A stretch of 64,000 nt of DNA, from contig OZ220729.1 of assembly GCA_965116895.1 (NCBI GenBank), positions 1,882,122 to 1,946,121 on the forward strand. The letters run 5' to 3'. This stretch comes from Gammaproteobacteria bacterium. Its GTDB lineage: Bacteria; Pseudomonadota; Gammaproteobacteria; Steroidobacterales; Foliamicaceae. Below, piece by piece: positions 5,642-64,000 of this stretch. Below the pieces are notes generated by a model, which was given only the letters and a program-made list of their open reading frames with translations, had not been told where the DNA came from and did no database searches. How positions within the stretch are numbered: the first letter of the stretch is position 1; each line of letters begins with the position of its first letter. Both the position numbers and the translations under genes were made by a program.

Positions 5642-5668
5642 ACTGCCCTTCGCATTCGAGGGAGTCCC

Positions 5669-7081: not shown

Positions 7082-7115
7082 GCGAAGCGCCTCAGGGACA
7101 TCTGGTAAGATCGAA

Positions 7116-7134: not shown

Positions 7135-7237
7135 CTGGGATCGCGGGACAAGGGGGCCTGACCATGCGGAAACGCAAGCGAACTCAATCACAAAGGCCGC
7201 TGTTCCCGCGGCCGGACTGTCCCGTCCGGAGATTCTT

Positions 7238-9643: not shown

Positions 9644-9654
9644 CGATCCTCGAC

Positions 9655-10518: not shown

Positions 10519-10544
10519 GTGTATTGCCGGCAGAATCGCCCGGC

Positions 10545-12167: not shown

Positions 12168-12226
12168 GGCGGCGCAAATGATAGCGCGCCCGGCGGGCCG
12201 GGAAACGCGCTGACTATAATTCGCCG

Positions 12227-47464: not shown

Positions 47465-48048
47465 ACGCGCGAGACCCAGGCCCTGCCCCCGCCGGGAGGG
47501 GAAGGCGTCTGCACGAAGCCCGAAAGCCCTGCATTCTCTGGTTGACCGGCTTGCCCGCCGCGGGAAAGACGACCCTCGCCCGGGAAATCGCCCGCAGGCT
47601 TGAAACGCTTAGCGTCCGCGCCTTCGTGCTGGACGGCGACGACCTCCGCCTGGGTCTCAACAGCGACCTCGGGTTCAGCCGCGCGGCCCGCGACGAGAGC
47701 GTTCGCCGAGCCGGCCACGCCGCCAAACTCCTTCTCGACGCCGGAACGATCGCGGTGGCTGCCCTGATCTCGCCCTTCCGCGACCACCGCCAGCGGATCC
47801 GCGAACTGGCCGGCCCCGACCGGTTCGTGGAGATCTTCGTCGACGCGCCGCTTCATGTGTGCGAACGGCGCGATCCGAAGGGGCTTTACGCCAGCGCGCG
47901 GGCCGGCGATATCCAGGACGTCACCGGCATCGATTCACCCTACGAACCGCCTGAAAATCCGGATATCCGGCTGCGGTCTGCGGAAAGCCCACCGGACGAA
48001 CTGGCGGGCCAGGTGATCCGCTACCTTAAGGAAAGGGAATACATATAG
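47461..48048 (+). CDS. cysC: Adenylylsulfate (APS) kinase
   Basis: TTG at 47461 overlapping the previous stop (TTGA). P-loop LWLTGLPAAGKTTLA, LDGDDLRLGLNSDLGFS, ISPFRDHR, VCERRDPKGLY, GIDSPYEPPENPD. Confidence 0.85.
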   Translation: MNARDPGPAPAGRGRRLHEARKPCILWLTGLPAAGKTTLAREIARRLETLSVRAFVLDGDDLRLGLNSDLGFSRAARDESVRRAGHAAKLLLDAGTIAVAALISPFRDHRQRIRELAGPDRFVEIFVDAPLHVCERRDPKGLYASARAGDIQDVTGIDSPYEPPENPDIRLRSAESPPDELAGQVIRYLKEREYI

Positions 48049-50344: not shown

Positions 50345-51298
50345 GTGCGGGAAAACAAAATACGAATTCATCGGCGGCGGCTGGTCCAGACAATGCTGGC
50401 CGCACCGCTGGCATACGTCTGGGCGCGGACAGGCGCGGACCAGGCGTTTTCTGCATCCGAATCGGCGCCGTCGGCGGCCGCGCGACGGATCCGCCGGCGC
50501 TACGTGGACGGGCGCTTCGGCCAGGTGCATGTGCATATTGCCGAAGCCCTGGATGAAACCGCACGGCGCACGCCGTTGATGTGCTTTCATCCCACGGCCT
50601 TGTCGGGGGACTTCTATCGCGATTACATGCTGGCGATGAGTCTCGACCGGCGGGTCATGGCGATGGATACGCCGGGCTACGGCCGATCGGATCCGCCGCC
50701 TGAACCGCAGCCGATGAGCGAACTGGCCGGCGCCGCGGCCGACACGCTGGTCGCGCTCGGCTACGGGGCGGATGGCGAAGGCGCCGTGGACGTGATCGGC
50801 TACCACACGGGAACCTTCATCGCTGCGGAACTGGCCATTGTCCGGCCGGATCTGGTGCGCCGCCTGGTGCTGCCCGGCATCCCCTACCGCGTCGGCGAGG
50901 AGCGCGAGGCGCTGTACGAGCAGTACGCCCGGCCCAGTGAGCTCAAGGAAGACGGCTCGAACGCGATGGAAGTGTGGCGCTTCTGGGTGACCGACCGACA
51001 CCCGGATGTTTCGTTGCAACGCGGCGCTTCGCACTTTGTCGATCACCTGCAGTCGGGCCCCTACGCGTGGTGGGCGTATCACAGCGTGTTCAGCTACCCG
51101 GCCGAAGAACGTCTTCCTCTGGTGCGGCAGCCCGTTCTGGTGCCCAACACGCACGGCAATCTCAATGAACCGTCCCGCGAAGCCGCGAAGCTGCTGAATG
51201 ATGTGCGGGTGGTGGAAATGCCTGACCTGAGCCACGGCGCATTCGATGTCGGCGCGGACCGGCTGGCCGACGTTTCCCGCGAATTTCTGGATCAATGA
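50345..51298 (+). CDS. Alpha/beta-hydrolase-fold protein with atypical nucleophile elbow (GYHTG), possibly exported
   Basis: GTG 50345 after GGGGGA (alternative ATG 50393). N-terminal extension IHRRRLVQTMLAAPLAYVWA looks signal-like. Core is homologous to 10545..11360 (MDTPGYGRSDPPPEP; VIGYHTGTFIAAELAIVRPDLVRRLVLPG). Confidence 0.65.
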   Translation: MRENKIRIHRRRLVQTMLAAPLAYVWARTGADQAFSASESAPSAAARRIRRRYVDGRFGQVHVHIAEALDETARRTPLMCFHPTALSGDFYRDYMLAMSLDRRVMAMDTPGYGRSDPPPEPQPMSELAGAAADTLVALGYGADGEGAVDVIGYHTGTFIAAELAIVRPDLVRRLVLPGIPYRVGEEREALYEQYARPSELKEDGSNAMEVWRFWVTDRHPDVSLQRGASHFVDHLQSGPYAWWAYHSVFSYPAEERLPLVRQPVLVPNTHGNLNEPSREAAKLLNDVRVVEMPDLSHGAFDVGADRLADVSREFLDQ

Positions 51299-52116
51299 AC
51301 ATGAATTTTGAGCGAGTCGCAAAACTGGGCGCGGAGGTTTCGGGCGTTGAGCTGACGCCGGACCTTGCACAGGATGTCATCGACGAGATAGAACAAGGAA
51401 TACTGGAACACAGAGTTCTGTTTTTCCGGGACCAGGAACTGAACGGAGAAGAACTCGTCGACTTTTCCCGCCGCTTTGGCGAGAGCTTCGTCCAGCCGGC
51501 GCTGGCGCACAAGTACCAGGAACTGCTGTTTCTGGAGAACGACAAAAGCAAGCCGCCCACGCTCAACACCTTTCACCAGGACATGACCGGCCTGGCGCAA
51601 CCCCCGGCGCTGCACATGCTGCACGCGCTGATCGTGCCCGATGGGGGCGGCGACACCATGTGGGCCTGCAACTACAGCGCCTACGAATCCCTCTCGGACG
51701 AAATGAAGCGGATACTCGGCAGCCTGACGTGCACCCACACCATACTCGGGTACTACGAACCGATCGTAAGGAACTGGGAGAACGCCGAGGAGACGCTGAA
51801 GGAGTTCAGGGAGATATTCCCGCCGGTGTCGCATCCGCTGGTGAGGACCCACCCGCAAACCGGCCGCAAGTCACTGTTCGTCAACCGCTTCTTCACCAAT
51901 TTCATCAACGGTTTCACTCCCCAGGAAAGCGAAAACCTGCTTCAGTTCCTGTACAAGCACATCGAAACGCCCGAATTCTGCGTGCGGCTGCGCTGGCGTC
52001 CCGGCACCCTGGCGATCTGGGACAACCGCTGCACCTCCCACTACGCGCTGGCCGACTACTGGCCGCAGCACCGCAAGATGCAGCGCGCCTCGGTCTCGGG
52101 CGACACGCCCTTCTAG
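51295..52116 (+). CDS. Fe(II)/2-oxoglutarate dioxygenase, TauD/TfdA family
   Basis: ATG overlapping the previous stop (ATGA). HxD in TFHQDMTG, GGGDTMWA, distal His in RCTSHYA. 273 aa. Confidence 0.8.
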   Translation: MNMNFERVAKLGAEVSGVELTPDLAQDVIDEIEQGILEHRVLFFRDQELNGEELVDFSRRFGESFVQPALAHKYQELLFLENDKSKPPTLNTFHQDMTGLAQPPALHMLHALIVPDGGGDTMWACNYSAYESLSDEMKRILGSLTCTHTILGYYEPIVRNWENAEETLKEFREIFPPVSHPLVRTHPQTGRKSLFVNRFFTNFINGFTPQESENLLQFLYKHIETPEFCVRLRWRPGTLAIWDNRCTSHYALADYWPQHRKMQRASVSGDTPF

Positions 52117-53651
52117 CCCAATTCCTCGCGCAGGCCCTTGACGAGGCCGACGCACATGCACAGCAGCACAAGAGTAAAGGGCAGGCCCACCGAAAGCGTC
52201 AGCGCCTGCAGCGAGGCCATGCCGCCGCCCAGCATCAGCGCCATCGCGGCGAGGCCGGCCAGCAGGCACCAGAAGGCGCGTTGCTGAACCGGCGCGTCCA
52301 TCTTCCCGCCGGCCGTAATGGTGTCCACTACCAATGATCCCGAGTCGGCCGAGGTGACAAAGAAGATCGTGATCAGGAGCACGCTGACGGCCGAGACGAT
52401 TCCGGTCATCGGCAAAGGCTCCAGCATCTTGAACAAGGCCAGTTCGGGCACCGATTCCGCCACCCCGGTATAACCGCCGGAGAAGTACTGGTCCAGCGCG
52501 GCGCCGCCGAACGTCGCCATCCACAGGATTCCGATGATCGTCGGGACGATCAGCACCCAGGTGATGAATTCGCGCACGGTGCGCCCAAAACTGATGCGCG
52601 CGATGAACATGCCCACGAACGGCGCCCAGGCGACCCACCAGGCCCAGTAGAAGGTTGACCAGTCGCGCACGAAAGCCACGTCCTCGCGGCCGATCCAGTT
52701 GCTCAGTGCCGGCAGGTAATAGACATAATCGACGCCCGCGTTGGCGATCGTCGCGAGAATCACCAGCGTGGGTCCCGCGACCAGGACGAACAGCCACAAC
52801 AGGGCCGCAAGCACCATGTTGATCCAGCTCAGGCGCTTGACGCCCTTGTCCAGCCCGGCGATGACGGACGCCAACGCGATGCCGATGATGACCATGATCA
52901 GAACGGCCCTGGTGGCGACGGTCGCGGGAATCCCGAACAGGTATTGCAGTCCGCCGGCGATCTGTTCGGCGCCGAAGCCCAGCGACACCGCCAGCCCGAA
53001 CAGGGTCGCCAGCACCGCCACGATGTCCACGGCGTGACCGAAGGGCCCCCAGACCGACTTGCCGATCAGCGGGAAGAAACCGGAGCGCATCGTCAGCGGC
53101 ATGCCGCGATTGAAACAGAAGAATGCCAGCGACAGGCCCGCGACGGCGTATATGGCCCAGGCGTGCAGCCCCCAATGCAGGATCGCCGCGGACATGCCGA
53201 CGGCCCGCGCGGTCGCGGTGTCGGCGGGATCGACGCCGAGCGGCGGCGCCAGGGTGTGGGTCACGGGCTCAAGGACGCCGAAGAACATCAGGCCGATGCC
53301 CACACCCGCCGCGAACAGCATGGCCAGCCACGCGGAATAGCCGTACTGGGGCGCCGCGTCCCGTCCCCCGAGGCGAATCCGTCCCAACGGAGACAGCGCG
53401 AGGCCGAGGCAGAACAGGACGAAGAGGTTCGACGCGGCGAAGTAGAACCAGTCGAACGTCGTGGTCGTCCAGACCCTCAGATCAGCGAACAGCGTCGCCG
53501 CCTGCTGCCGGAACAGCAAGGTTCCGATCACCAGTATGACCACCAGCGCGGCGGAAACGATGAAGACCGGATTGTGGATGTCGAGCCCAAGGAAGCGGAT
53601 ATTCTGCTCGCCGATCTTGTGGCCGATATCGGGCGCCGCCTTGGAGTTCAT
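52113..53651 (-). CDS. BCCT-family (betaine/carnitine/choline) transporter
   Basis: ATG at 53651 (MNSKAAPDIGHKIGEQNIRFLGLDIHNPVF). BCCT-like core including the Trp-rich segment FYWAWWVAWAPFVGMFIARIS. The track extension to 53903 is not credible. Confidence 0.85.
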   Translation of the reverse strand: MNSKAAPDIGHKIGEQNIRFLGLDIHNPVFIVSAALVVILVIGTLLFRQQAATLFADLRVWTTTTFDWFYFAASNLFVLFCLGLALSPLGRIRLGGRDAAPQYGYSAWLAMLFAAGVGIGLMFFGVLEPVTHTLAPPLGVDPADTATARAVGMSAAILHWGLHAWAIYAVAGLSLAFFCFNRGMPLTMRSGFFPLIGKSVWGPFGHAVDIVAVLATLFGLAVSLGFGAEQIAGGLQYLFGIPATVATRAVLIMVIIGIALASVIAGLDKGVKRLSWINMVLAALLWLFVLVAGPTLVILATIANAGVDYVYYLPALSNWIGREDVAFVRDWSTFYWAWWVAWAPFVGMFIARISFGRTVREFITWVLIVPTIIGILWMATFGGAALDQYFSGGYTGVAESVPELALFKMLEPLPMTGIVSAVSVLLITIFFVTSADSGSLVVDTITAGGKMDAPVQQRAFWCLLAGLAAMALMLGGGMASLQALTLSVGLPFTLVLLCMCVGLVKGLREELG

Positions 53652-55618
53652 ATCGCGAAGCGCCGCCGCACGTCTTCGCCAAGCGCATCCCTGAGCGGGT
53701 CGAGCCAGGATTCGTAGTTGCGCCAGTAGTCCAGTCCCGCCTTGAAAATCGGCTGGCGGACCTGCTCCGAACTCGGGGTGCGCACCGCCCTTTCCGTGCG
53801 GTGAAAGCTCAGGCACCCCGGTTCGAAGTCGAGTCCGCAGTGGTCGAGAATCCGGCGCACCTGGGTTTCGAGGTCGCCCACCACTTCCTCGTACTGGACG
53901 CACAGCACCTTGCCGGGAAGCACCGTGTCCCAGTGGTCCATGAGTTCCACGTAATCGCGATAGTACTGTCCGAGGTCCGCCAGGTCGTAGGTGAATTGCT
54001 GGCCTTCGGCGAAGAGCTGCTTGTAGCCGCTGAAGCCGCAGGCCATGGGGTGCCGCCTGGCGTCGATGATCTTCGCATTGGGCAGCATCAGGTGAATCAG
54101 TCCGATGTGGCGGAAGTTGTTCGGCATCTTGTCGACGAAAAACGGAGCGTCCTGGCGGTGAATCCGGGTGTCGTCGATGTACTGCTGCCCGAACTGTCGC
54201 AGTTCCTCATCCGACAGTGTCGCCAGGATCTCGGGATAGTCCGGTTCGGGCCCGCTACGCCCGCGCCGTCGCAACTGCTGCGCCAGCGACAGGACGTTCG
54301 GCAGTTCCAGGGTTCCGTCCACCCGCGAATGGGATGAAAGAATCTGTTCCAGCAGAGTTGATCCGGCGCGCGGCAGCCCGACAACGAAAATCGGATCGCC
54401 GGCGGAATGCCCCGCCTCCGCGCCGCGCGACAACATACCGGCGACGCACACCCGATGCTGGGCGCGCAGTTCCTCCGTCATCTTGTCCGCGTCGTAGCGG
54501 CTCGCAGCCTTCTTCGAGCGGTTGCCCTGCTCGTAGAACCGGAACGAGGTCTCGAAGTCTTCGCGGTCCTCGTAGGCCTTGCCCAGGGCGAAGTTCAGAT
54601 GCACGCGGTCGGCATGGGACAGATCATTCTTCCCGGCCTGCGCATGCATCCGCTCGAGTTCGCGGTCGCTGAACGAATAGACCTTCAGGTTGGACAGCGA
54701 ATACCAGGCTTCGCCGTGGCGTGGCTGGCTCGCGAGCGCCGCCCGGTAGGAGGCGACAGCCTCGTCGTACTGGCCGTGGGTCTTGAGCGCATGGCCCTTC
54801 GAGGTAAGCGTGACCGGGTCGCCCGGAATCTTCTCCAGCACCCTGTCGAAAAGACCCAGCGCCTCCTCGTAGTCGCCGGTCTGCATGCATTCGATCGCGT
54901 AGATCGACTGGAACTGCGGATTGCCGGGCGAGGTCTCAAGCAGCAGCCTGGCCTGCTCGAGGGCCTTTTCGAATTTCTGGCGCTTCCTGAGCGCCTGGAT
55001 GTAGTCCATGTGCACCCGCACGTTCTTCGGATCGAACTGGTGCGCCGACTCGAGCAGGAATTCTGCGTCCGCCAGGACCCCGAAGCGGATGCCGATGTCG
55101 GCCAGCAGCCGCATGGCTTCCACGTGGTGCGGCACTTTCCTGAGAAACTTGCGGCACAGGTCCTCCGCCTTGAGCAGCTTGCCCTGGCTCATGAGGTCGA
55201 GGACGATGACGAGCGGCCGCGGCAACTGCTCAAAGTGGTCAATCTGGGCTTTCGCTTGCGCAGCCTCCCGGAGGCGCCCGCTCCGGGCCAGGATGTTCAG
55301 TTGCCCCCTCCAGCTCGCCACCAGCGCCGGGTTGAACCGGCACGCCTGCGCATACGCCCGCAACGCCTGGGCCGGACGGCCCATGTCGCGGTACGCGTGG
55401 CCCTCCTCCTGGTGTGCCCGGCCGTTCTCGGGCGCGAGGGCTTTCAGCCTGGCGAGCTGCGCCAGCGCCGCATCGAACTCGCCACGGTAGCGGCGGCAGA
55501 CCGCGCTCATGTACAGCGCGTCGGTGTTTTCCGGCTCGTCCCTGAGGATGTCATAGAGGTCGGCCAGCGCTTCGTCAAACTGCTTCCCGACGATCCTGGC
55601 CTGAATGGCATCCAGCAC
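53648..55618 (-). CDS. TPR-repeat protein fused to a PAPS-type sulfotransferase domain
   Basis: GTG start. The N-terminal ~380 aa are TPR-like repeats. The C-terminal domain has a 5'-PSB-like loop VVGLPRAGSTLLEQILSSHS and a Sulfotransfer-type core (FVDKMPNNF, RHPMACGFS). The stop overlaps the BCCT start (ATGA). Confidence 0.8.
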   Translation of the reverse strand: MLDAIQARIVGKQFDEALADLYDILRDEPENTDALYMSAVCRRYRGEFDAALAQLARLKALAPENGRAHQEEGHAYRDMGRPAQALRAYAQACRFNPALVASWRGQLNILARSGRLREAAQAKAQIDHFEQLPRPLVIVLDLMSQGKLLKAEDLCRKFLRKVPHHVEAMRLLADIGIRFGVLADAEFLLESAHQFDPKNVRVHMDYIQALRKRQKFEKALEQARLLLETSPGNPQFQSIYAIECMQTGDYEEALGLFDRVLEKIPGDPVTLTSKGHALKTHGQYDEAVASYRAALASQPRHGEAWYSLSNLKVYSFSDRELERMHAQAGKNDLSHADRVHLNFALGKAYEDREDFETSFRFYEQGNRSKKAASRYDADKMTEELRAQHRVCVAGMLSRGAEAGHSAGDPIFVVGLPRAGSTLLEQILSSHSRVDGTLELPNVLSLAQQLRRRGRSGPEPDYPEILATLSDEELRQFGQQYIDDTRIHRQDAPFFVDKMPNNFRHIGLIHLMLPNAKIIDARRHPMACGFSGYKQLFAEGQQFTYDLADLGQYYRDYVELMDHWDTVLPGKVLCVQYEEVVGDLETQVRRILDHCGLDFEPGCLSFHRTERAVRTPSSEQVRQPIFKAGLDYWRNYESWLDPLRDALGEDVRRRFAI

Positions 55619-55690: not shown

Positions 55691-55712
55691 GGCGTCCTCC
55701 GGGGAGGACGCC
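55691..55712 (-). terminator. GC-rich palindromic hairpin downstream of TBDR-5 (possible terminator or attenuator)
   Basis: ggcgtcctcc-gg-ggaggacgcc: 10-nt arms that are exact reverse complements, 32 nt after the TBDR-5 stop. It is followed on the minus strand by gttgtcg. Confidence 0.4.
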
Positions 55713-55743: not shown

Positions 55744-58371
55744 TCAGAAGTTCACGCTCGCGCGTACGCCGAATGTCCTGGGTTGCGCATACGTGACGTG
55801 CTTGGTGTCGAAGACGAATGAGCGCGACACCTCGGCCCGTTCATCGGTCAGGTTGCTGCCGAAAAGCGTCACCGACCAGTTGTCGCTGGCCACGCCCGCC
55901 GTCAGGCCGAGCATCGTCCAGCTATCGATCCGGTCGCGGTTGATGGTAATGATGTCGCTGTACGAATCCGCGGACCAGGTAATCATGGGCATGACGTGCG
56001 CCGTCCACCCATTGGCCTGCAGGGTCCACTCGTAGCGCGCCCGCAGATTGCCCTGGTTGCCCGGGGCGAACGCAAGCTCGTCCCCCTCGCGCACATCGTT
56101 GGTGGGGGTGATCTTCCGCGTGATCTCGGAGTCCAGCAAGGACAGCGCGCCGGCGATCGTGAGCCCGTCGATGCCGGGGGGCAGCCAGACGAAGTCCGCC
56201 TCCAGACCCCTCACCCTCGCGTCCGCCGCATTGTCCGAGAAGAACAGGTTGACGATGCTGGTATCGAAGATCGTGGTCTGCAGATTGTCGATATCGACGT
56301 TGAACAGCGCCGCGTTAATGCGGAAGGCGTTACCGAAATCGGCTTTCATGCCCACTTCGACATTGACGACTTCGTCGGTTTGCAGCTCAAAGGGAACCAC
56401 GAAACCGCTGCCATCCGCGCTCGGGCGCCCGCCCGGGCGATTCAACAGGCCCGGCCGGAAGCCCTCCGACAGCGTGACGTAGTAGAGGTGCTCCGGCTGC
56501 GGCCGCCACCCGAGCGTCGCCTTGAAGATCGTGCCGTCGGCTACCGCCTTGTCGGGCGCGCCCACGGCGTTGCCGGGCATGAACTGCTGCGAAATGTTGG
56601 TGCCGAAGCGCTGCCCGTCAGTTCTGTTTGCGCCGAAATTCCCGAACGACGAGTTGGCGCTGCCCTCGAGGTCCACCTCGATCTCGTAATTGCGCGCGCC
56701 CAGCGTCAGCGTGAACTGCTCGGTGAGGTCGAAGTCCAGTTCGCCGAAAACGCCGAACTGATCATCCGTGCGCCGGATGTCGTTGCGGAAGATGACCCCG
56801 ATGTCGCCGCCGTGGCGATCCGGACCGAATGGCCCCGGGTAGGTGTAGTAACCGGGGCCGGCGCCGAACGCACTTCCGGCAGGATTACCGGGAGCCGCTC
56901 CAGGATTGGTCAGCGGGTAGTTCGGCGCGAACCCCGGATGCCCGTTCCACGAGATGGCCCAAACGGAACCCGGATAGATGAAGTCGTTGACCTCGATGAG
57001 TTCCAGTTCGCTTGTAAACACACCGCCCTGGAGCCGCCACCGCCTCGACTGGTCCGTGGTGAAGCGGATTTCATGCGTCTGGACGTCGAGCCTGTTGAGG
57101 CTGTCCACGTACATTTGCGGCGGGTGACACCTCGTGCCTGCACGGGGAATGCCCGGAGGACTGTTGAATGACGTATACGTCGCGTAGTAATCGCAGATGT
57201 AGTAAGGCAGGTACTGACCCACGAACAGGTAGTCGGAGTAGTCCACGATCTGGTCCGACTCGCGGTCCGTGAACGCGCCTGCGTAGATGACGTCCAGCCC
57301 CGCCAGCCGTCCCGTGAGCGTCACGGCCGTGTTGTCGAAAGTGTCGAAGATGCCTTCATTCACGAAGCGGTTGACTTCCAGTTCGCCGACATCGGGATCG
57401 GCGAAGAACACACCGTCCGCCTCGGTATCCTGGGTCGTATGCGCAACCAGCAGACTCCAGTCGTCGGTGATGTCCCATTTCGCCGAGATCCGGCCGCCGC
57501 TGTAGGTGACTTCGTTGATGTCTTCGTCGGCTATCGCGCTGTTGTCGACCTCAAAGAACGTGATATTGGAAAGATCCACTCCCGCCTGGAATCCGGCGCG
57601 ATAGGAGGCGACGGGGACTCCGTTCTTGCGAACCGCACCCGCGGGCCGGAACCGTGCACTCTCCTCGGCGGTCCTCGTAGCGGCCACATTGTCGATCCAG
57701 CCGCCCTTGCTGTCGTGGTAGAAGACGCCGCGCAAACCGAAGTTGTCGCTTAAGGGAACGTTCAGCATGACTTCGATGCTCTCACCCCCGTCGCCGCCGC
57801 TGATCGTGTTCGCGCCGAGCTTCGCATTGCCGTAAAACTCGTTCAGGTCCGGCTTGTTCGTGATCAGGCGGACGTTGCCGGCCTGCGAACTGGCCCCGAA
57901 CAACGTGCCCTGGGGACCCGAGAGCACTTCGATGCGCGCCAGGTCCGCGGCGTAAACGTCGAGATTGCGGCCCGGATGCGCCAGCGGCTGTTCATCCAGG
58001 TAAAAGGCGACGTTGGGCGCCAGGCCGGCCACGCCGGCCACAGTCAGGTTCGGCGTCGTGGAAGCCACGCCGCGAATGTAGATGGTGTTCTGGCCCGGTC
58101 CGCTGCCGCCGGCTGTCACGTTCGGCAGCTGCAGCACGTAGTCCGCGAAATTGGTGACCCCGAGTTCGGTGATCTCGCGCGTGTCCAGGGCGGTCACGGC
58201 AAGAGGAACATCCTGCAGCGATTCCTGGACGCGCCTCGCGGTAACCACGATCTCGTCGAGCACCCGCCCGCCGGCAGCCTCCTGCGCCGACGCCGCGACC
58301 GGCGCGCCGACAATCGCAGCGGCTACCGCAGCGGACAATACGCTTTGTTTCGTTGGTACATTAATCGCCAT
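55744..58371 (-). CDS. TonB-dependent receptor (TBDR-5)
   Basis: ATG 58371 after GGGAGA. Signal MAINVPTKQSVLSAAVAAAIVGAPVAASAQE, plug LDEIVVTARRVQESLQDVPLAVTAL, ends ..GVRASVNF. Confidence 0.85.
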   Translation of the reverse strand: MAINVPTKQSVLSAAVAAAIVGAPVAASAQEAAGGRVLDEIVVTARRVQESLQDVPLAVTALDTREITELGVTNFADYVLQLPNVTAGGSGPGQNTIYIRGVASTTPNLTVAGVAGLAPNVAFYLDEQPLAHPGRNLDVYAADLARIEVLSGPQGTLFGASSQAGNVRLITNKPDLNEFYGNAKLGANTISGGDGGESIEVMLNVPLSDNFGLRGVFYHDSKGGWIDNVAATRTAEESARFRPAGAVRKNGVPVASYRAGFQAGVDLSNITFFEVDNSAIADEDINEVTYSGGRISAKWDITDDWSLLVAHTTQDTEADGVFFADPDVGELEVNRFVNEGIFDTFDNTAVTLTGRLAGLDVIYAGAFTDRESDQIVDYSDYLFVGQYLPYYICDYYATYTSFNSPPGIPRAGTRCHPPQMYVDSLNRLDVQTHEIRFTTDQSRRWRLQGGVFTSELELIEVNDFIYPGSVWAISWNGHPGFAPNYPLTNPGAAPGNPAGSAFGAGPGYYTYPGPFGPDRHGGDIGVIFRNDIRRTDDQFGVFGELDFDLTEQFTLTLGARNYEIEVDLEGSANSSFGNFGANRTDGQRFGTNISQQFMPGNAVGAPDKAVADGTIFKATLGWRPQPEHLYYVTLSEGFRPGLLNRPGGRPSADGSGFVVPFELQTDEVVNVEVGMKADFGNAFRINAALFNVDIDNLQTTIFDTSIVNLFFSDNAADARVRGLEADFVWLPPGIDGLTIAGALSLLDSEITRKITPTNDVREGDELAFAPGNQGNLRARYEWTLQANGWTAHVMPMITWSADSYSDIITINRDRIDSWTMLGLTAGVASDNWSVTLFGSNLTDERAEVSRSFVFDTKHVTYAQPRTFGVRASVNF

Positions 58372-58442
58372 AGTCCCCAATCTCCCGGCGGCTCAATGCT
58401 GAGCCAACTCCCATACTGTAACCCATAGATTTTGCCGGCCGA

Positions 58443-59984
58443 TTATCGCCCCATGGCAGCCCGGGACAGAAGGATCGGGAACCCGGACCGCACGCCAGCG
58501 TCGATCTCGTCGCTGACGTGGCGCGGCGCCGGATCGGCGAGGACTTCCCGCTTCTTTTCGGCAGCCCGATTCAGCAGCGCCGGCTTGCCTTTTTCTTCCC
58601 AGACGGTCGGGCTGTCCCGGTCGCTGAAGTCGGGGTATATGTACTCGCTTTGCATCACCTGCAGGGTACTCCCCGAACCCAGGTAATGCCCTTCGCCGCC
58701 GGCGCAGATCTGCTCGATCTCGGCGAAGCTCAGCGTCTCCGGGCTCACTTCGATCCCCCGTGTAACGCGCCCGACGGCGCCAAGAACGTCGTTGTCCAGC
58801 AAGAGGCTCTCCGGGCAGGTCCCCAGCAGGCTGGCGTACATGCCGGCGGATTCATAAACGATGTTCGCCCCGGACAAGGCGGCCGCCAGCACGGTTGCCG
58901 CGCGTTCCGCCCCGGCCTGAAAGTCGGGGAACTTGGCGTCGGTCATGCCGCAGGCGGTGCCGAAGGGAAGGTCGAAGTGGAGGCCGAGCTGGGCGCAGGC
59001 GGCGGACAGCAGACCTTGCTCGGGCGAGCCGCCGCTCATCGCCCCGGTGCGCAGATCCGAAACAAACGGCCAGGCGCCGAGAATCGCCGGCGCGCCGGGT
59101 TTGATCGCGTTGACATAGACCAGCCCACCGAGACACTCCGCCCAGGCTTGGGAAACCGCCCCGGCCAGATAGGCGGGGGTCGTTGCGCCGGCCTGCCCCG
59201 CCGACAGCAGCAGCACCGGCATGCCGCCCTCTACGGCCACGCGCAGGCACTCGAGGGCGTCGGTGGCGAACTTCATCGGCGGCACCACAAAACAGTTGGA
59301 CTGGCTGACGAAGGGACGCGCCCGCCACTCGGCCTCGCCGCCGGCGATCAGATGCAGCATCTCGAGGCTCTGCTCCACGTGCCCGGGCAGCGTCCAACTC
59401 GAACCGACGTGCTTGCTGGTGCCCATCACCGAGCAGTAGAGGGTATTGATGTCCATTTCGTAGTTGTCGCGAATGTCCCGGGGCACGCAGGTGCGCTGGA
59501 ACATGTGAATGTGCTCGCAGGTGTCGACGATACGCGCCATGTCGTACAGATCCTGCGCCAGCGAATCCCGGTAAAGGTTGTTTTCCGTGTCGGCCACCAT
59601 GACCGCGGCGCCGGCGGTGGAGAAGTGCACTCTGGCGCCGCTCAGATCGAGGTCTCTGCGCGGATCCTGCCCATGGAGCACCAGATTCCGCCGGGCCAGT
59701 TCGAGGGTTCGCTCGACCAGGCTTGGGGGCATGCGCAGGCGCCCGTCCTCGCCGAGCACGGCGCCGACCGCCGTGCAGGTCTCGATGCAGTGAGGCGTGG
59801 CGTCGGCGAATCCCACCCTGTCGAGAATCTCGAAGGCATTGTCCGCTATGGCCGTAACGCCGTCGGCGGACAAGGGCCGGTACTGTCCTCCGGCATGCCC
59901 CGGCCGAACCGGCTTGATCGCTTCGGCAAGCGGCGCGGCGCGCTCGGCCCTTCTGGCCCGTCTACCGCCCGATCGTCGAGGCAT
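58443..59984 (-). CDS. MttB-superfamily methyltransferase, non-pyrrolysine type (quaternary-amine:corrinoid methyltransferase-like)
   Basis: 513 aa uninterrupted ORF with no in-frame TAG. MttB-like TIM-barrel segments (FEILDRVGF, HFSTAGAAVMV, PVLLLSAGQAGATTPAYLAG, SGANIVYESAGM). Confidence 0.8.
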   Translation of the reverse strand: MPRRSGGRRARRAERAAPLAEAIKPVRPGHAGGQYRPLSADGVTAIADNAFEILDRVGFADATPHCIETCTAVGAVLGEDGRLRMPPSLVERTLELARRNLVLHGQDPRRDLDLSGARVHFSTAGAAVMVADTENNLYRDSLAQDLYDMARIVDTCEHIHMFQRTCVPRDIRDNYEMDINTLYCSVMGTSKHVGSSWTLPGHVEQSLEMLHLIAGGEAEWRARPFVSQSNCFVVPPMKFATDALECLRVAVEGGMPVLLLSAGQAGATTPAYLAGAVSQAWAECLGGLVYVNAIKPGAPAILGAWPFVSDLRTGAMSGGSPEQGLLSAACAQLGLHFDLPFGTACGMTDAKFPDFQAGAERAATVLAAALSGANIVYESAGMYASLLGTCPESLLLDNDVLGAVGRVTRGIEVSPETLSFAEIEQICAGGEGHYLGSGSTLQVMQSEYIYPDFSDRDSPTVWEEKGKPALLNRAAEKKREVLADPAPRHVSDEIDAGVRSGFPILLSRAAMGR

Positions 59985-60043: not shown

Positions 60044-60943
60044 TCAGCCCCGACGGCGACGGCGGCCCCGACGGGCCCCGCGAGCCCCGGCCGGCGCACC
60101 GGGTTCGCGGTACTTGCCGATCCAGCGCGCGCAATCGGGATCCTTGCCCATCATGACATCGGCGCCGAGGACCGCCTGCACGACCTCGACGTGCAGCGGA
60201 TTGGTGATCGCCGAAGTCATGCCGGCGCCGATCGCCATGGTAAGGAATGCGCTGTTGATGCCGTTGCGATTCGGCAGGCCGAAACTCACATTGGACGCGC
60301 CGCAGGTGGTATTGACCTTCAGTTCCCCGCGCAACCGCCTGACCAGGTGCATGACCTGTTTGCCGGCGGCGTTGATCGCGCCGATCGGCATGACCAGAGG
60401 ATCGACCACGACATCGCTCGGGGAAATGCCGTGGTCCTGCGCCCGTTCGACGATTTTTCTGGCCACTTCGAAGCGCACGTCCGGATCCTCGGAAATGCCG
60501 GATTCATCGTTGGAGATGGCCACCACCGCGGCGCCGTGCCGGGCTACCAGCGGCAGCACAGTCTCCAGCCTGTCCTCTTCGCCCGTGACCGAGTTGACCA
60601 GCGCCTTGCCCCGATAGACCGCCAGTCCGGATTCCAGCGCGGCGACGATGGACGAATCGATAGACAGCGGCACATCGGTTACCGACTGCACCAGCCTGAT
60701 GGCCTCGGCCAGCATGGCGGGTTCGTCCGCCAGCGGGATTCCGGCGTTCACGTCCAGCATGTGGGCGCCCGCCTCAACCTGGGCGAGGGCGTCCGCGACC
60801 ACGCGATCGTAGTTGCCCGCCTTCATTTCCTCCGCAAGGATTTTCCGCCCGGTGGGGTTGATACGCTCGCCTATGATCACGAAGGGCCGGTCGAAACCGA
60901 TCACGACCTCCCGGCTGGCGGAGGCGACTACCGTGTCCGTCAT
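60044..60943 (-). CDS. Pterin-binding methyltransferase (methyltetrahydrofolate:corrinoid methyltransferase, MetH/AcsE/MtrH-like)
   Basis: FVIIGERINPTGRK, GAHMLDVNAG, PLSIDSS, ALVNSV, CGASNVSFGLP: the pterin-binding (DHPS-like) barrel signature. Confidence 0.8.
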   Translation of the reverse strand: MTDTVVASASREVVIGFDRPFVIIGERINPTGRKILAEEMKAGNYDRVVADALAQVEAGAHMLDVNAGIPLADEPAMLAEAIRLVQSVTDVPLSIDSSIVAALESGLAVYRGKALVNSVTGEEDRLETVLPLVARHGAAVVAISNDESGISEDPDVRFEVARKIVERAQDHGISPSDVVVDPLVMPIGAINAAGKQVMHLVRRLRGELKVNTTCGASNVSFGLPNRNGINSAFLTMAIGAGMTSAITNPLHVEVVQAVLGADVMMGKDPDCARWIGKYREPGAPAGARGARRGRRRRRG

Positions 60944-60958: not shown

Positions 60959-61279
60959 TTACGCATCCGGCGTCTCCTCCAGACCGTGATTGCGAATGAG
61001 CGCCAGCAGGCTCTCATCCGAGTATCGCGCTTCGATCCCGGCCGCAAGCCTTTCGGCGACCGCCTGCAGATCGTCCGCCGCGGCATCCGACCCGGGCCTG
61101 ATCGGTTCCCGCGCCCATTCGCTGAGATAGGCATCGGCGCTTTGCTTCTTCGCCCGCATGGCGGCGCGATCGATGGCGTTCTGGAAGCGCCCGCTCAACC
61201 GCGCCCTTGCGCGCAGCCTGCCCTTCCTGACAATCACCTGTGCGGGAATGTCGCGCCACTTCACCAGGACGGCGTTCAT
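60959..61279 (-). CDS. Small conserved protein often found in corrinoid-methyltransferase clusters (tentatively the family annotated 'virulence factor'); function unknown
   Basis: ATG 61279 (MNAVLVKWRDIPAQVIVRKG...) or ATG 61318. The family assignment is from memory of the WRDIPAQV-type N-terminus and is tentative. Confidence 0.45.
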   Translation of the reverse strand: MNAVLVKWRDIPAQVIVRKGRLRARARLSGRFQNAIDRAAMRAKKQSADAYLSEWAREPIRPGSDAAADDLQAVAERLAAGIEARYSDESLLALIRNHGLEETPDA

Positions 61280-61333
61280 GGCGTCAGCCCGCTTCCTCCC
61301 GGCGGACCCGAATCCCATTCGGAGCGACCCGCG

Positions 61334-62059
<726 letters not shown>

Positions 62060-62072
62060 GCCAACTACCTCC

Positions 62073-62107
62073 AACCACCGAACTTCAGCCTCGAAAGTTC
62101 AGTGGTT
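62073..62107. promoter_or_regulatory. Imperfect 13-bp inverted repeat in the divergent corrinoid-operon / DMGDH intergenic region (candidate operator or 5'-UTR hairpin)
   Basis: aaccacCgaactt (62073-62085) and aagttcAgtggtt (62095-62107) match at 12 of 13 positions, with a 9-nt spacer. It starts 14 nt upstream of the corrinoid-protein ATG. Confidence 0.3.
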
Positions 62108-62245
62108 CCAGGACGGGATCCCGGCCGATCCTGCGGCCCACGGCGGCATATTAGCAGTCATGAATCGACATCCGCAATGGAAAAACGCGACTATTGCAAG
62201 TGAGCGCCAACTTCCGTGAGAATCGCTTCAGGCCCGGAGGGCGCC

Positions 62246-64000
62246 ATGCAGAAACAGGCTCGAATTGTCATCGTCGGCGGCGGCATCATGGGCGTCGGCC
62301 TGCTGTATCACCTGGCGGCCGAGGGATGCGCCGACGTCCTGCTGATCGAGAAGGGCGAGTTGACTTCGGGCTCGACCTGGCACGCGGCCGGTCAATGCCC
62401 CAACCTGGTCGGCGACTACAACCTCGCCAAGATCCACGAATACAGCATTTCCCTGTACAGGAAACTGGAGCACCTGACCGGACAGTCGGTCACCTGGCAC
62501 GACTGCGGCAGCGTCCGCTTTGCCCTCACCGAGCAGGACCTGGACTGGTTCCGCTACCTGCGCGGGATCGCCGCGAATGTCGGTTACCACATGGAGATCG
62601 TGGACGTTGCAAAGATCGGCAAGCTGAATCCCTTTGTCTCGACCGAAGGCGTGCTGGCCGGCGCCTGGACCCGCAACGACGGCCATGCCGACCCGTTCGG
62701 GCTGACCCAGGCGATGGCGAAGGGAGCGCGCAGCCTCGGCGCCGGGATCGTGCGGCACAACCGGGTGATCGGGATTGAATCCATGCGCGGCGGAGAGTGG
62801 AAAGTGATGACCGAGCAGGGGCCGGTCATCGCCGAAACCGTTGTCAACGCAGCCGGCTGCTTCGCCCGGCAAGTGGCGGGGATGGTGGGAGCGGATCTTC
62901 CGATCTGCAACATCAAGCACCACTATCTCGTCTCCGGCCCGGTGCCGGAACTGGCCGGCAGAAGTGAAGAACTCCCCGTAACCCGCGACCCCTATGCCTC
63001 CGTCTACCTGCGCCAGGAGCAGGAGTCCGGCCTGATCGGCATCTACGAGTCCGAAGGGCTCAGCGAAGCCTGGCAGCCGGGCGGACTGCCGCCCTGGGAG
63101 TCCGACAGCGAGCTGTTCGAGGACGAACTCGAGCGCCTGATGCCCTGGCTGGAGCGGGCCATGGAGCGCATGCCGATCTTCGAACCGGCTGGCATCAAGC
63201 GGATCGTCAATGGCGCCATCTCCCACAGCCCCGACGGTCTGCCGCTGCTCGGCCCGGTGGCGGGCCTGAGCAATTTCTGGCTGTGCTGCGGCTCGTCGTT
63301 CGGCATTGCCCAGGGCGCCGGCTGCGGCAAGTACCTGGCCCAGTGGATGTTGCATGGCGATTCCGAAATCAACATGACCGGGTTCGATCCGCGGCGATTC
63401 GGAGTGTTTGCCGATGCCGGCTACATGAGCGCCAGGGGGCGCCAGGACTATGCCAGGACCTACGTCACTCCGCCTCCGGGGGAAGAACTGCCGGCGGCCC
63501 GCCGATGCCGGACCAGCCCCCTCTATGACAAGCTCAAGGCCCAGGGTTGTGTCTACACCGACACCTTCGGCTGGGAGCGGCCCAAGTGGTTCTCTCCCGA
63601 CGGCCGCGAGGAGCAATACAGCTTTCGACATAACAACGTGTTCGAGCTGGTGCGCGAAGAGTGCCTGGCCGTGCGCGAGCGGGTCGGCCTCCTGGACCTC
63701 TCCGGGTTCTCCAAGTACGACGTGACGGGTCCCGATGCCAGCACGATGCTGAATCGACTCTGCGCCAACCGTGTGCCGACAGCGGGCCGCATCGCGCTCA
63801 CCCACCTGCTGTCCGAGGGCGGGCGCATCGGCGCCGAAATGACCATCACCCGGCTGGACGACGAGACCTTCTACGTGCTTTCCGCCGCCGGCGCCGAACT
63901 GCGCGATCTCGACCACCTGACACAGGGCCGGCTCCCCACGGAGCAGACGCATGTGGCCAATGTCACCGACCGGCGGGGGGTCCTGGTGCTGGCCGGACCG
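62246..64000 (+). CDS. FAD-dependent dimethylglycine/sarcosine dehydrogenase-like protein with GcvT-type folate-binding domain (3' end outside the window)
   Basis: Not in the ORF track because it has no stop in the window. ATG 62246 is followed by 585 open codons to base 64000. MQKQARIVIVGGGIMGVGLLYHLA (dinucleotide fold), SGSTWHAAGQ (covalent-FAD His context of the DMGDH/SARDH family), and the later GcvT-like region (SPLYDKLKAQGCVYTDTFGWERPKWF, LLDLSGFSKYDV). Confidence 0.85.
   Translation, partial: MQKQARIVIVGGGIMGVGLLYHLAAEGCADVLLIEKGELTSGSTWHAAGQCPNLVGDYNLAKIHEYSISLYRKLEHLTGQSVTWHDCGSVRFALTEQDLDWFRYLRGIAANVGYHMEIVDVAKIGKLNPFVSTEGVLAGAWTRNDGHADPFGLTQAMAKGARSLGAGIVRHNRVIGIESMRGGEWKVMTEQGPVIAETVVNAAGCFARQVAGMVGADLPICNIKHHYLVSGPVPELAGRSEELPVTRDPYASVYLRQEQESGLIGIYESEGLSEAWQPGGLPPWESDSELFEDELERLMPWLERAMERMPIFEPAGIKRIVNGAISHSPDGLPLLGPVAGLSNFWLCCGSSFGIAQGAGCGKYLAQWMLHGDSEINMTGFDPRRFGVFADAGYMSARGRQDYARTYVTPPPGEELPAARRCRTSPLYDKLKAQGCVYTDTFGWERPKWFSPDGREEQYSFRHNNVFELVREECLAVRERVGLLDLSGFSKYDVTGPDASTMLNRLCANRVPTAGRIALTHLLSEGGRIGAEMTITRLDDETFYVLSAAGAELRDLDHLTQGRLPTEQTHVANVTDRRGVLVLAGP

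Follow-up and report, generated by a model that had tools for sequence, protein, structure and literature searches.

A TonB-dependent receptor, a TPR-sulfotransferase and a BCCT carrier form a conserved gene unit in marine proteobacteria

The adjoining genes for a TPR-sulfotransferase and a BCCT-family carrier in the window, the whole 64-kb stretch of DNA analysed here, are the distal part of a larger conserved unit, in which a TonB-dependent receptor (TBDR) gene is followed by the sulfotransferase and the BCCT gene, often together with a gene for a MarR-like regulator. The unit, which spans the cell envelope, is present in many marine bacteria of the Gamma- and Alphaproteobacteria, and a literature search found no study of it. 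We tentatively prefer the reading that the receptor and the carrier import a scarce quaternary-ammonium alcohol, which would then be O-sulfated in the cytoplasm. Protein tyrosine sulfation, possibly of the receptor itself, is a rival that we rank nearly equal.

The unit emerged from a comparison of the loci of the 80 closest sulfotransferase relatives in other species, which share 50–87% identity and which we refer to as family A. A TBDR homolog lies directly upstream of the sulfotransferase gene on the same strand in 77 of these loci, a BCCT gene is present in 56, in four different arrangements, and a MarR-like regulator gene in 26; the latter is absent from the 64-kb window. The constant partner of the sulfotransferase is therefore the receptor rather than the BCCT carrier. 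At the same time, the pairing with BCCT, whose conservation the earlier note had set as a check, is kept in so many other species that it is not due to chance: the gene pair is real, and its proximity, retained despite rearrangement, argues for functional coupling. Since no other enzyme recurs in most loci, the unit appears self-contained, with a regulator, two transporters and one enzyme.

Table 1. Features of the locus, with positions in the window.
Feature	Position	Strand	Remarks
CysD	46616-47464	+	possible PAPS supply
APS kinase CysC	about 47461-48048	+	TTGA overlap with CysD; possible PAPS supply
TauD/TfdA-family 2-oxoglutarate dioxygenase	51295..52116	+	convergent with BCCT gene, stops overlap by 4 bases
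BCCT-family carrier, 512 aa	52113..53651	-	Pfam BCCT end to end, E 1.3e-166
TPR-sulfotransferase, 656 aa	53648..55618	-	GTG start 55618, TGA stop 53648-53650
GC-rich hairpin GGCGUCCUCC/GGAGGACGCC	55691..55712	-	within the 125-nt receptor-sulfotransferase spacer
TonB-dependent receptor, 875 aa from ATG at 58371	55744..58380	-	signal peptide, TonB box LDEIVVTA
Non-pyrrolysine MttB-superfamily methyltransferase (quaternary amine:corrinoid type)	58443..59984	-	Pfam MTTB 3e-108
Pterin-binding methyl-corrinoid:tetrahydrofolate methyltransferase	60044..60943	-	Pterin_bind 2.9e-31; NF005719 3e-107
Small PF13769 ('Virulence_fact') protein	60959..61318	-	between corrinoid and pterin genes
Corrinoid (B12-binding) protein, MtgC type	61334..62074	-	first gene of run; B12-binding, B12-binding_2
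Dimethylglycine/sarcosine-dehydrogenase-like gene	62204..64000	+	DAO + FAO_M + GCV_T; divergent from run; cut off by window end

As the earlier note had proposed, the sulfotransferase combines a TPR array with a C-terminal catalytic domain. In Pfam, residues ~14–310 match many TPR families and residues 409–600 match Sulfotransfer_3 (E 1.5e-51), and the AlphaFold2 model (pLDDT 84, pTM 0.80) has about 11 helical hairpins in residues 1–400, followed by an alpha/beta domain. Residues 405–656 are predicted to be a TPST-like PAPS-dependent sulfotransferase domain. In favor of the long form of 656 aa, tblastn alignments to distant genomes begin at query residue 1–5. The PAPS loop GLPRAGSTLLEQ (residues 414–425) is invariant among orthologs, and the 5'-phosphosulfate-type residues recognized in the earlier note align properly with those of the tyrosylprotein sulfotransferases (TPSTs). 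Across 77 orthologs, the loop GLPRAGSTL, K497, R521/R522...S530, RTPSSEQVRQPI and E438, which aligns with the catalytic Glu of the TPSTs, are likewise invariant, and the PAPS and catalytic motifs are also common to four other TPR-sulfotransferase groups. The protein thus lacks none of the motifs expected of an active enzyme that uses PAPS; it is predicted to be cytoplasmic, since no signal peptide, transmembrane segment or export signal was found in its sequence. The family is large, with 10,429 cluster representatives (50% identity) matching the sulfotransferase domain at E<=1e-30, and a literature search on the module and the TPR-sulfotransferase family found no functional study, in agreement with the earlier description of such proteins as widespread and functionally unassigned.

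The translational coupling suggested earlier is confirmed by the coordinates: the BCCT start codon (ATG 53651-53649) overlaps the sulfotransferase stop codon in an ATGA (53648-53651). The same 4-base overlap is found in five other loci, and elsewhere a small gap separates the two genes where BCCT follows the sulfotransferase. The best solved relative of the carrier is 8zw8, 'Trimethylamine transporter' (E 9e-133), followed by BetT-type choline carriers and then BetP; its aromatic (Trp) box AWWVAW is intact and is accompanied by HWGLHAWAIY, and it does not reach the cut-offs of the NCBIfam equivalogs for betaine and choline carriers. In the receptor, only the plug resembles solved receptors. 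At the start of predicted extracellular loop 4, which was assigned solely from strand alternation and loop lengths in a low-confidence AF2 model (pLDDT 54.5), stands a near-invariant acidic Tyr/Cys cluster, DYxDYLFVGQYLPYYICD...C. The spacer between the receptor and sulfotransferase genes has a minimum free energy of -62.7 kcal/mol (z = -2.3); its hairpin is without a U tract and may have a role in setting the expression ratio of the operon.

In the window, the three genes close a run of seven genes on one strand that is headed by genes for corrinoid/MttB-type quaternary-amine demethylation (Table 1). The MttB-superfamily reading frame is uninterrupted, 62 bp separate it from the receptor gene downstream, and the best NCBIfam match of the corrinoid protein is MtgC, below its cut-off. 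Quaternary-amine substrates have been described for the MttB superfamily (PMC8604678, PMC12155760, PMC12478193). MttB, the corrinoid protein and the dimethylglycine-dehydrogenase-like gene are also neighbors in L001–L004, while Sphingorhabdus-type loci have a GMC oxidoreductase, an aldehyde dehydrogenase, an MR/MLE enolase-superfamily enzyme and PurU, and L007, L018 and L024 have Ldh_2, DAO and an aldehyde dehydrogenase. Where present, such recurring neighbors belong to betaine or choline-type catabolism. Two further neighbors highlighted by the earlier note are real but lie outside the conserved unit. The TauD-family gene does converge on the BCCT gene, but it stays adjacent only in the closest relative, L001, with distant copies in L013 and L017, and scores 262 bits against the taurine dioxygenase model (cut-off 313). 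Likewise, the CysD/CysC pair is present 5.6 kb from the sulfotransferase stop, with no CysN seen in the 64-kb window, but L001 does not have it at the syntenic place, and CysC occurs near the module in 4 of the 80 loci, all of them distant, as a stand-alone gene.

According to our preferred reading, the receptor would bind a scarce quaternary-ammonium compound and carry it through the outer membrane with TonB energy, and the BCCT carrier would move it through the inner membrane. The cytoplasmic sulfotransferase would then transfer sulfate from PAPS to a hydroxyl of the compound or of an immediate derivative, in the simplest case converting choline to choline-O-sulfate. The product would be a zwitterionic ester in place of a cation; no longer recognized by the carrier, it could be a trapped store or a compatible solute. 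The TPR arm might serve in docking or oligomerization. Sulfation, the fate of the ester and the role of the TPR arm are the weakest steps of the scheme. In this genome, the imported pool could also supply the adjoining MttB/corrinoid/tetrahydrofolate demethylation system. The intact aromatic box and the trimethylamine- and choline-carrying relatives of the BCCT protein support this substrate class, as do the recurring neighbors with roles in betaine or choline-type catabolism, and we count the APS kinase beside the module in four distant loci, and nearby here, for PAPS supply. A weak ecological hint comes from Pontixanthobacter, where clusters of TBDR, of BCCT and of sulfotransferase genes are each found along with halotolerance (PMC10040529). 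Yet an arm of 11 TPR repeats is uncommon in enzymes that act on small molecules, the invariant neighbor is the receptor and not the BCCT carrier, and the nearest solved relatives are TPSTs, which count against a small-molecule acceptor, though the similarity is weak. Moreover, PAPS is a costly expenditure for catabolism, and TonB-dependent receptors are not the normal route for bulk osmolytes. For comparison, no bacterial choline sulfotransferase defined by its sequence is known to us.

A second group of TPR-sulfotransferases, family B, bears on both this reading and its closest rival. All nine loci examined keep the order TBDR, sulfotransferase and inner-membrane transporter, but the carrier is of the MFS type in eight and an Opp-type ABC transporter in one, and in most a translationally coupled beta-lactamase-like gene follows the sulfotransferase. 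A receptor-sulfotransferase pair that precedes such different carriers and enzymes seems too portable for substrate-specific chemistry. It would instead fit a cytoplasmic protein-tyrosine sulfotransferase acting on the co-encoded receptor: before Sec export, the receptor precursor, still unfolded, would be bound by the TPR arm and sulfated on acidic Tyr sites by the TPST-like domain, and the sulfotyrosines in an extracellular loop of the mature receptor would help to bind organic cations. We consider this doubtful but credible. It is favored by the fixed order and strand of the two genes in the 77 family-A loci and the same order in family B, by the union of a TPST-like domain with an OGT-like TPR arm, by the family-A loop 4 cluster (D-Y-x-D-Y...Y-L-P-Y-Y-x-C-D...C), which is acidic at -1 and has no nearby basic residues, and by the resemblance of the inferred substrates of all three architectures to organic cations or amines. 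Furthermore, pairwise sulfotransferase distances track those of the receptor (r = 0.63) better than those of BCCT (r = 0.49), and in L025 two tandem TPR-sulfotransferases adjoin an autotransporter. The cytoplasmic glycosyltransferases Aah/TibC and HMW1C, which modify outer-membrane proteins encoded alongside them before export, offer a precedent; however, we know of no sulfated outer-membrane protein in bacteria. Family-B receptors do not have the DYxDY motif, so the two families were not found to share an acceptor motif, and a Tyr-rich loop could hold quaternary amines unmodified by cation-pi contacts. Besides the low confidence of the receptor model, in L009 the sulfotransferase-BCCT pair is flanked by housekeeping genes only and no receptor gene is nearby, and a substrate cannot be read from the adjacency of genes alone.

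The acceptor might also be another protein or peptide that the TPR arm brings in, such as the cytoplasmic part of the inner-membrane carrier, a regulator or a peptide encoded elsewhere, so that sulfation controls uptake and leaves the solute unaltered. The arm with its conserved basic patches in repeats 6–9 (R211-K215, H276, K279), the TPST-like domain, and the translational coupling to whatever gene follows, BCCT here and the beta-lactamase-like gene in most family-B loci, point in this direction. We nevertheless deem it unlikely: the MarR-like gene is too sporadic, the varying family of the downstream partner (BCCT, MFS, ABC) means that the neighborhood encodes no constant cytoplasmic target, and no conserved small reading frame (25–89 aa) was found to accompany the module, which speaks against a RaxX-like precursor. 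Very improbable, in our view, is the import of a ready-made sulfate ester, for instance choline-O-sulfate, with the enzyme running in reverse or passing the sulfuryl group on to PAP or a different acceptor, so that sulfur is recovered. Choline-O-sulfate is a recognized marine metabolite, BCCT-type carriers can handle related onium compounds, and no sulfatase gene recurs beside the module among the loci compared, so another desulfation route would be needed. But the thermodynamics are unfavorable for a transfer to PAP from an alkyl sulfate ester, little would be gained in sulfate-rich seawater, and the APS kinase neighbor points to PAPS use, not production. We give equally little credence to a sulfotransferase that is merely co-transcribed with transport genes and modifies an unrelated acceptor, e.g. 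a lipid or polysaccharide. In its favor, the family is very large and diverse; still, a linkage kept across two proteobacterial classes, four gene arrangements and a second paralogous group is hard to explain without functional coupling.

Among known systems, TPST1/2 are the best solved relatives of the catalytic domain, but the match is weak (E about 2e-6, about 30 bits), with similar scores for the CurM/OLS sulfotransferases. The TPR arm most resembles the one in O-GlcNAc transferase (OGT); its nearest structural analogs are OGT and SPINDLY, whose arms select protein substrates.

The sulfotransferase and BCCT genes are the tail of a run of seven same-strand genes, whose members are listed in the table together with the other features of the window considered here. 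The genes of this run are closely spaced; those for MttB and the receptor, for instance, are 62 bp apart, and 125 bp separate the receptor gene from the sulfotransferase gene. ORF and domain searches bear out the gene coordinates of the earlier note, place the loop it quoted at residues 414-425 and recover the neighborhood it described, with a CysD/CysC pair and a convergent TauD gene. The overlap of the sulfotransferase stop with the BCCT start as ATGA, also taken from that note, is present in the window sequence, and a 4-base overlap recurs in five loci around relatives of the sulfotransferase in other genomes.

Features of the window, with positions in nucleotides and the strand on which each is encoded
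Feature	Position	Strand	Remark
MFS_2 carrier	4181-5641	plus	second receptor-centered cluster (4181-11360)
MFS_2 carrier	5642-7081	plus	second receptor-centered cluster
TonB-dependent receptor	7109-9643	plus	second receptor-centered cluster
PhyH-family 2-oxoglutarate dioxygenase	9526-10518	plus	second receptor-centered cluster
Alpha/beta hydrolase	10470-11360	plus	second receptor-centered cluster
POT-family peptide transporter, then M2 peptidase	12185-15492	plus	M2 peptidase angiotensin-converting-enzyme-like, E 1e-221
CysD	46616-47464	plus	short, 282 aa, matched in two stretches
APS kinase CysC	about 47461-48048	plus	overlaps CysD by TTGA
TauD-family gene	51295-52116		convergent with BCCT gene
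BCCT carrier	52113-53651	minus	ATG at 53651; 512 aa; tail of run
TPR-sulfotransferase	53648-55618	minus	GTG at 55618 to TGA at 53648; 656 aa
Inverted repeat	55691-55712	minus	10 bp, GC-rich; in receptor-sulfotransferase spacer
TonB-dependent receptor	55744-58380	minus	directly upstream of sulfotransferase
MttB-superfamily methyltransferase	58443-59984	minus	in seven-gene run
PYLIS_3 match	58847-58946	minus	inside MttB homolog
Pterin-binding methyltransferase	60044-60943	minus	in seven-gene run
PF13769 protein	60959-61318	minus	in seven-gene run
Corrinoid protein	61334-62074	minus	first of seven same-strand genes
Dimethylglycine-dehydrogenase-like gene	62204 onward		divergent from start of run

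Consensus scans of the run were uninformative and yielded no convincing internal promoter or terminator, with no promoter-like sites and fewer terminator-like sites than expected from shuffled sequences. The 125-nt spacer between receptor and sulfotransferase genes (MFE z = -2.3) contains an inverted repeat without a U tract, and this hairpin might, by attenuation or through RNA stability, set the receptor:enzyme ratio. An Rfam scan of 40-64 kb found no riboswitch, its only match being PYLIS_3, the pyrrolysine insertion sequence of mttB, at 39.1 bits (gathering threshold 38). Since the MttB reading frame has no in-frame amber codon (TAG), this match probably reflects coding-sequence similarity rather than a working element. 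Elsewhere in the window, a second receptor-centered cluster contains two MFS_2 carriers, a receptor, a dioxygenase and a hydrolase; as at the sulfotransferase locus, a predicted enzyme whose relatives modify peptides comes after the receptor gene. A peptide transporter and an M2 peptidase are encoded next to each other beyond this cluster.

In the sulfotransferase, Pfam assigns Sulfotransfer_3 to residues 409-600 (E 1.5e-51) and many TPR families across the N-terminal half. An AlphaFold2 model built from 21 orthologs (pLDDT 84, pTM 0.80) has about 11 helical hairpins over residues 1-400, followed by an alpha/beta domain. The protein possesses neither a signal peptide nor a membrane segment and should therefore be cytoplasmic; the cytoplasm is also where the sulfate donor PAPS is found. 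Its 5'-phosphosulfate loop, GLPRAGSTL (residues 414-422), aligns to GVPRSGTTL of the tyrosylprotein sulfotransferase TPST1 and is invariant in 77 orthologs and in five TPR-sulfotransferase groups. Likewise, K497 in DKMPNNF aligns to NKDPF of TPST, and the 3'-phosphate motif R521/R522...S530 in LPNAKIIDARRHPMACGFS to LMVRDGRASVHS of TPST; both, as well as the C-terminal RTPSSEQVRQPI, are invariant or nearly so in the 77 orthologs (50-87% identity), and the PAPS-type motifs are also conserved in four other TPR-sulfotransferase groups. In the MAFFT alignment, the second Glu of the GEET motif in TPST2 is matched by E438, which is invariant, while phmmer puts D434/G435 there, a shift of four residues; D434 is invariant in the orthologs as well. 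For the MAFFT alignment, we used what we take to be the correct TPST2 sequence and residue numbers. The PAPS-binding loop proposed earlier thus stands, as its PAPS residues align with TPST and are invariant in the orthologs, and the protein is, judging by these residues, a bona fide PAPS-type sulfotransferase.

When the domain sequence is searched on its own, human TPST1 and TPST2 come out as its best solved relatives (E about 2e-6, about 30 bits), followed at a similar score by the CurM/OLS sulfotransferases, enzymes acting on acyl carriers. The TPR half is closest, by sequence and fold, to the TPR superhelix of O-GlcNAc transferase (OGT) and SPINDLY. A PDB fold search with the full model returned TPR proteins only and was thus uninformative on the catalytic domain, for which the domain-only sequence search proved more useful. 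NCBIfam holds no model specific to the TPR-sulfotransferase, and we found no sequence-defined bacterial choline sulfotransferase (EC 2.8.2.6) for comparison. The domain family is large, with 10,429 cluster representatives at 50% identity (E<=1e-30), mostly from environmentally abundant Proteobacteria. Some proteins of 1000-2800 aa (P0244, P0254 and others) carry 2-6 copies of the domain, and a TPR-sulfotransferase entry with 86% identity to the window enzyme (P0109) also matches PF02574, the homocysteine S-methyltransferase family, which may point to a fusion or, with a neighbor of betaine-homocysteine type involved, to an artefact of assembly or gene calling.

The carrier matches the Pfam BCCT profile end to end (positions 1-485 of 485, E 1.3e-166) and keeps the aromatic Trp box, in FYWAWWVAWAPFVG (AWWVAW) and HWGLHAWAIY; in BCCT carriers, this box binds head groups of the trimethylammonium or dimethylsulfonium type. 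Its closest solved relatives are, in this order, a trimethylamine transporter (E 9e-133), BetT-type choline carriers, BetP, DddT and CaiT. It remains below the NCBIfam cut-offs for the betaine (479 bits vs 650), BetT (437 vs 695) and CaiT (199 vs 541) models, and passes only the generic BCCT subfamily model. The receptor, in turn, has a plug domain (E 7e-16) and a barrel (E 5e-32) in Pfam, as well as a signal peptide and a TonB box (LDEIVVTA) recognizable in the sequence, and resembles solved receptors only in the plug. Its AlphaFold2 model, with 22 predicted strands, is of low confidence (pLDDT 54.5) and does not include the plug, and therefore only the order of strands and loops was used. 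By the alternation of strands and loop lengths in this low-confidence model, the near-invariant motif of the receptor family, DYxDYLFVGQYLPYYICD...C, sits at the start of predicted extracellular loop 4, whose segment with the tyrosine cluster reads DQIVDYSDYLFVGQYLPYYICDYY. Such an aromatic, acidic loop would suit an organic cation, and its sequence is at the same time similar to a site of tyrosine sulfation.

More than 586 relatives of the sulfotransferase emerged when one genome per species was scanned, and the best 80 of them (50-87% identity) were analyzed. Cultured hosts of an ortholog include Halioglobus, Erythrobacter, Qipengyuania and Aurantiacibacter (L011, L028, L032, L039). The 80 fall into marine Gammaproteobacteria (Woeseiaceae, Pseudohongiella, Halieaceae, Porticoccaceae, SAR92) and marine Alphaproteobacteria (Erythrobacteraceae and other Sphingomonadales, Hyphomonadaceae, Parvularculaceae, Maricaulis), the closest labelled ones being MAGs of 'Gammaproteobacteria bacterium', Pseudohongiella and Woeseiaceae. 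In 77 of these best 80, the gene immediately upstream, in the same orientation, encodes a homolog of the window's receptor; for two of the three exceptions, no upstream DNA is available. The sulfotransferase-BCCT pairing pointed out earlier for the window is likewise conserved in other genomes, since 56 of the best 80 loci have a BCCT homolog, albeit in several positions: it comes immediately downstream in the same orientation in 21 loci, diverges from the receptor gene in 19, lies upstream in the same orientation in 9 (mostly Erythrobacteraceae), converges from the downstream side in 3 and sits at another place in the locus in 4. Unbiased ORF clustering of the same best 80 loci recovered the sulfotransferase in 78, the receptor in 75, the BCCT carrier in 54 and a MarR-like regulator in 26, with an aldehyde dehydrogenase next (11); the MarR-like gene is absent from the window, though. 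Pairwise distances of the sulfotransferase correlate with those of the receptor at r = 0.63 and with those of the carrier at r = 0.49. In a Cellvibrionales MAG (L009:9953-13971), the sulfotransferase and BCCT genes form a pair of their own, flanked by RNase R/RlmB and rpsF (ribosomal protein S6), and no receptor gene is found within 10 kb upstream.

Where the BCCT gene is missing, other carriers and genes of betaine-type catabolism are found instead, as in two sets of loci. In the first (L069-L074, L079), receptor and sulfotransferase are followed by an MFS carrier, an aldehyde dehydrogenase, an MR/MLE enolase-superfamily enzyme, a GMC oxidoreductase and a LysR regulator, with PurU upstream; the second (L007, L018, L024) features Ldh_2, DAO, an aldehyde dehydrogenase, an M19 dipeptidase and two proteins without a Pfam match. 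In their predicted gene content, both resemble (hydroxy)proline-betaine-type pathways. As for dedicated PAPS synthesis, the CysD/CysC pair does lie 5.6 kb from the sulfotransferase gene, but there is no CysN in the window, the pair has no counterpart at the syntenic position in the closest relative (L001), and CysC occurs near the module in only four of the best 80 loci; the pair does not belong to the conserved unit. Among the recurrent neighbor clusters, there is neither a sulfatase, which would be a sign of choline-O-sulfate catabolism, nor an ABC/PCAT exporter, and no ORF of 25-89 aa that could encode a RaxX-like precursor is conserved beside the module beyond four closely related loci.

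The pairing of receptor and sulfotransferase extends beyond the orthologs of the window enzyme (family A). In family-A loci, paralogous TPR-sulfotransferases of about 30% identity also adjoin receptors (L006, L046). In one locus (L025:12689-21016), two tandem paralogs adjoin an autotransporter of 1399 aa with GIY(V/I)DDYMEG within its passenger repeats; we rejected these Tyr/acid repeats as evidence, because they are too little distinctive. A second orthologous group (family B) was sampled through its gene neighborhoods in MAGs of Caulobacter, Steroidobacteraceae, Haliea type and others. In eight of its loci (L082, L084-L090; e.g. L082:1704-11699), we found a MocR/GntR regulator, a CN-hydrolase, a receptor, a TPR-sulfotransferase, a beta-lactamase-like protein and an MFS carrier; a class-III aminotransferase and an aldehyde dehydrogenase often come next. 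This looks like a putative module through which an amine or amide compound would be taken up and degraded. The ninth, on a Sterolibacterium-type contig (L091:3497-13007), has a receptor and a TPR-sulfotransferase followed by a complete Opp/Dpp-type ABC peptide transporter. The second-group sulfotransferase is usually translationally coupled to whichever gene comes next. Since family A and the second group both keep it, the order receptor, TPR-sulfotransferase, carrier holds with BCCT, MFS and ABC carriers, and the receptor-sulfotransferase pair is thus, as far as gene order can tell, a general cassette.

It is well supported by these comparisons that the module is a conserved, predicted uptake unit for a quaternary-ammonium compound, with a putatively active PAPS-dependent sulfotransferase as an integral part. 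As to the acceptor, we tentatively prefer the possibility that the enzyme O-sulfates an imported hydroxyl-bearing onium compound, in the simplest case choline, while holding it to be well short of probable. It is favored by the self-contained unit with its single enzyme, the tight coupling of the sulfotransferase to the BCCT gene, their occurrence as a lone pair in the Cellvibrionales MAG, the neighboring genes of betaine- or choline-type metabolism and the recurrence of an APS kinase beside the module in four distant loci. The receptor offers the main alternative among candidate acceptors: the TPR arm would recruit its precursor, and the TPST-like domain would sulfate its loop tyrosines before export. 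The invariance of the receptor as a partner, the portability of the cassette across unrelated carriers and the architecture of TPR arm and TPST-like domain all argue for such a role; yet the idea is unprecedented, and the receptors of different sulfotransferase groups share no acceptor motif, with DYxDY absent from the region of the family-B receptors that aligns to the family-A tyrosine cluster, so that we regard it as doubtful.

To our knowledge, tyrosine sulfation in bacteria is known only for the RaxX peptide. A broader version of receptor sulfation, which we consider unlikely, would make the TPR-sulfotransferases bacterial enzymes that sulfate protein tyrosines and are specialized for outer-membrane proteins. 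The substrate of each would be the receptor encoded just upstream, whose tyrosines would be modified in the cytoplasm before Sec export, here within the acidic DYxDY...YYxCD cluster of extracellular loop 4. Organic cations, among them quaternary amines, polyamine-like amines and basic peptides, would then bind at the sulfotyrosine site so formed. It is quite improbable that another protein is the target, and very little speaks to us for a reverse use of the enzyme on sulfate esters or, with a similarly slight chance, for the lack of any functional link between the enzyme and the transport genes.

Returning to O-sulfation of an imported solute, the module would then be, as far as we found, the first case in which a bacterial route to sulfated quaternary amines, for instance choline-O-sulfate, is defined at the gene level; TonB-dependent receptors would scavenge onium compounds, which bears on the marine exchange of carbon, nitrogen and sulfur. 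If the acceptor were instead the receptor or another envelope protein, tyrosine sulfation would be established as a general bacterial surface modification, and if the outer-membrane-protein reading were true, the Gram-negative cell surface would turn out to carry a widespread post-translational modification that had so far gone unseen. More than 10,000 cluster representatives (E<=1e-30), mostly from environmentally abundant Proteobacteria, have no assigned function, and as the enzymes form part of TonB-dependent uptake units, placed between outer-membrane receptor and inner-membrane carrier, the question is directly testable. While the components are all of known kinds, their combination and its generality appear undescribed: our literature search found no study of the module or of the TPR-sulfotransferase family, the closest being PMC2938197 and PMC10040529.

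TPST1/TPST2 and RaxST have several motifs in common with the window enzyme: a 5'-phosphosulfate loop of the GxPRSGTT type, the lysine in (D/N)K(M/D)P, the R...S motif for the 3'-phosphate and a C-terminal S-x-x-Q-V-x-x-P; in the MAFFT alignment, a Glu of the enzyme also falls at the position of the TPST catalytic base. It differs from TPST, to which its similarity amounts to about 30 bits, in having a 400-residue TPR arm and no membrane anchor or signal peptide, and in its predicted cytoplasmic rather than Golgi-lumenal location. Unlike raxX-raxSTAB, the module has no co-encoded precursor peptide or peptidase-type ABC exporter. As in NodH/NodPQ and RaxST/RaxPQ, the sulfotransferase lies a few kb from CysD and APS kinase genes, but the acceptors Nod factor and RaxX have no counterpart in the window, and CysN is not seen there. 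Like OGT and SPINDLY, which gave the best matches for residues 14-326, the protein carries a long TPR superhelix on the N-terminal side of a transferase domain that uses a nucleotide cofactor; the resemblance is purely architectural, as the GT41 glycosyltransferases have a different fold and chemistry from the P-loop sulfotransferases and the enzyme parts are not homologous.

The first four genes of the run include those for a pyrrolysine-free methyltransferase of the MttB superfamily, a corrinoid protein and a pterin-binding methyltransferase, and correspond to systems for corrinoid-dependent quaternary-amine demethylation of the MtgB/MtgC/MtgA type. This pathway is known from anaerobes and has recently been described also for aerobic marine bacteria such as Ruegeria pomeroyi (PMC8604678, PMC12155760, PMC12478193). 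For the latter system, the portion available names only a BCCT-type carrier and mentions neither 'TonB' nor 'sulfotransferase' (PMC12478193), whereas here the receptor-sulfotransferase-BCCT unit is attached to demethylation genes, though only in the closest relatives (L001-L004). In Pontixanthobacter, gene clusters for receptor, BCCT carrier and sulfotransferase co-occur with halotolerance (PMC10040529). TonB-type receptors of Alpha- and Gammaproteobacteria have also been found next to enzymes of peptide-modifying type (tryptophan halogenase / SapC / JmjC-like), with sulfotransferases named among the neighbors (Iyer et al. 2010; PMC2938197). The available portions of that paper predict the biosynthesis of siderophore-like metabolites and do not describe a TPR-sulfotransferase/BCCT unit; in contrast, no biosynthetic genes accompany the present module. 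Finally, the TonB-dependent nutrient-uptake loci of Proteobacteria (e.g. Xanthomonas sux/CUT) likewise combine a receptor, a secondary carrier, one enzyme and a small regulator, as does the module in aquatic Alpha- and Gammaproteobacteria, but the enzyme here is a PAPS-dependent sulfotransferase instead of a hydrolase or isomerase, the carrier belongs to the BCCT family, and the receptor-sulfotransferase pair precedes unrelated carriers.
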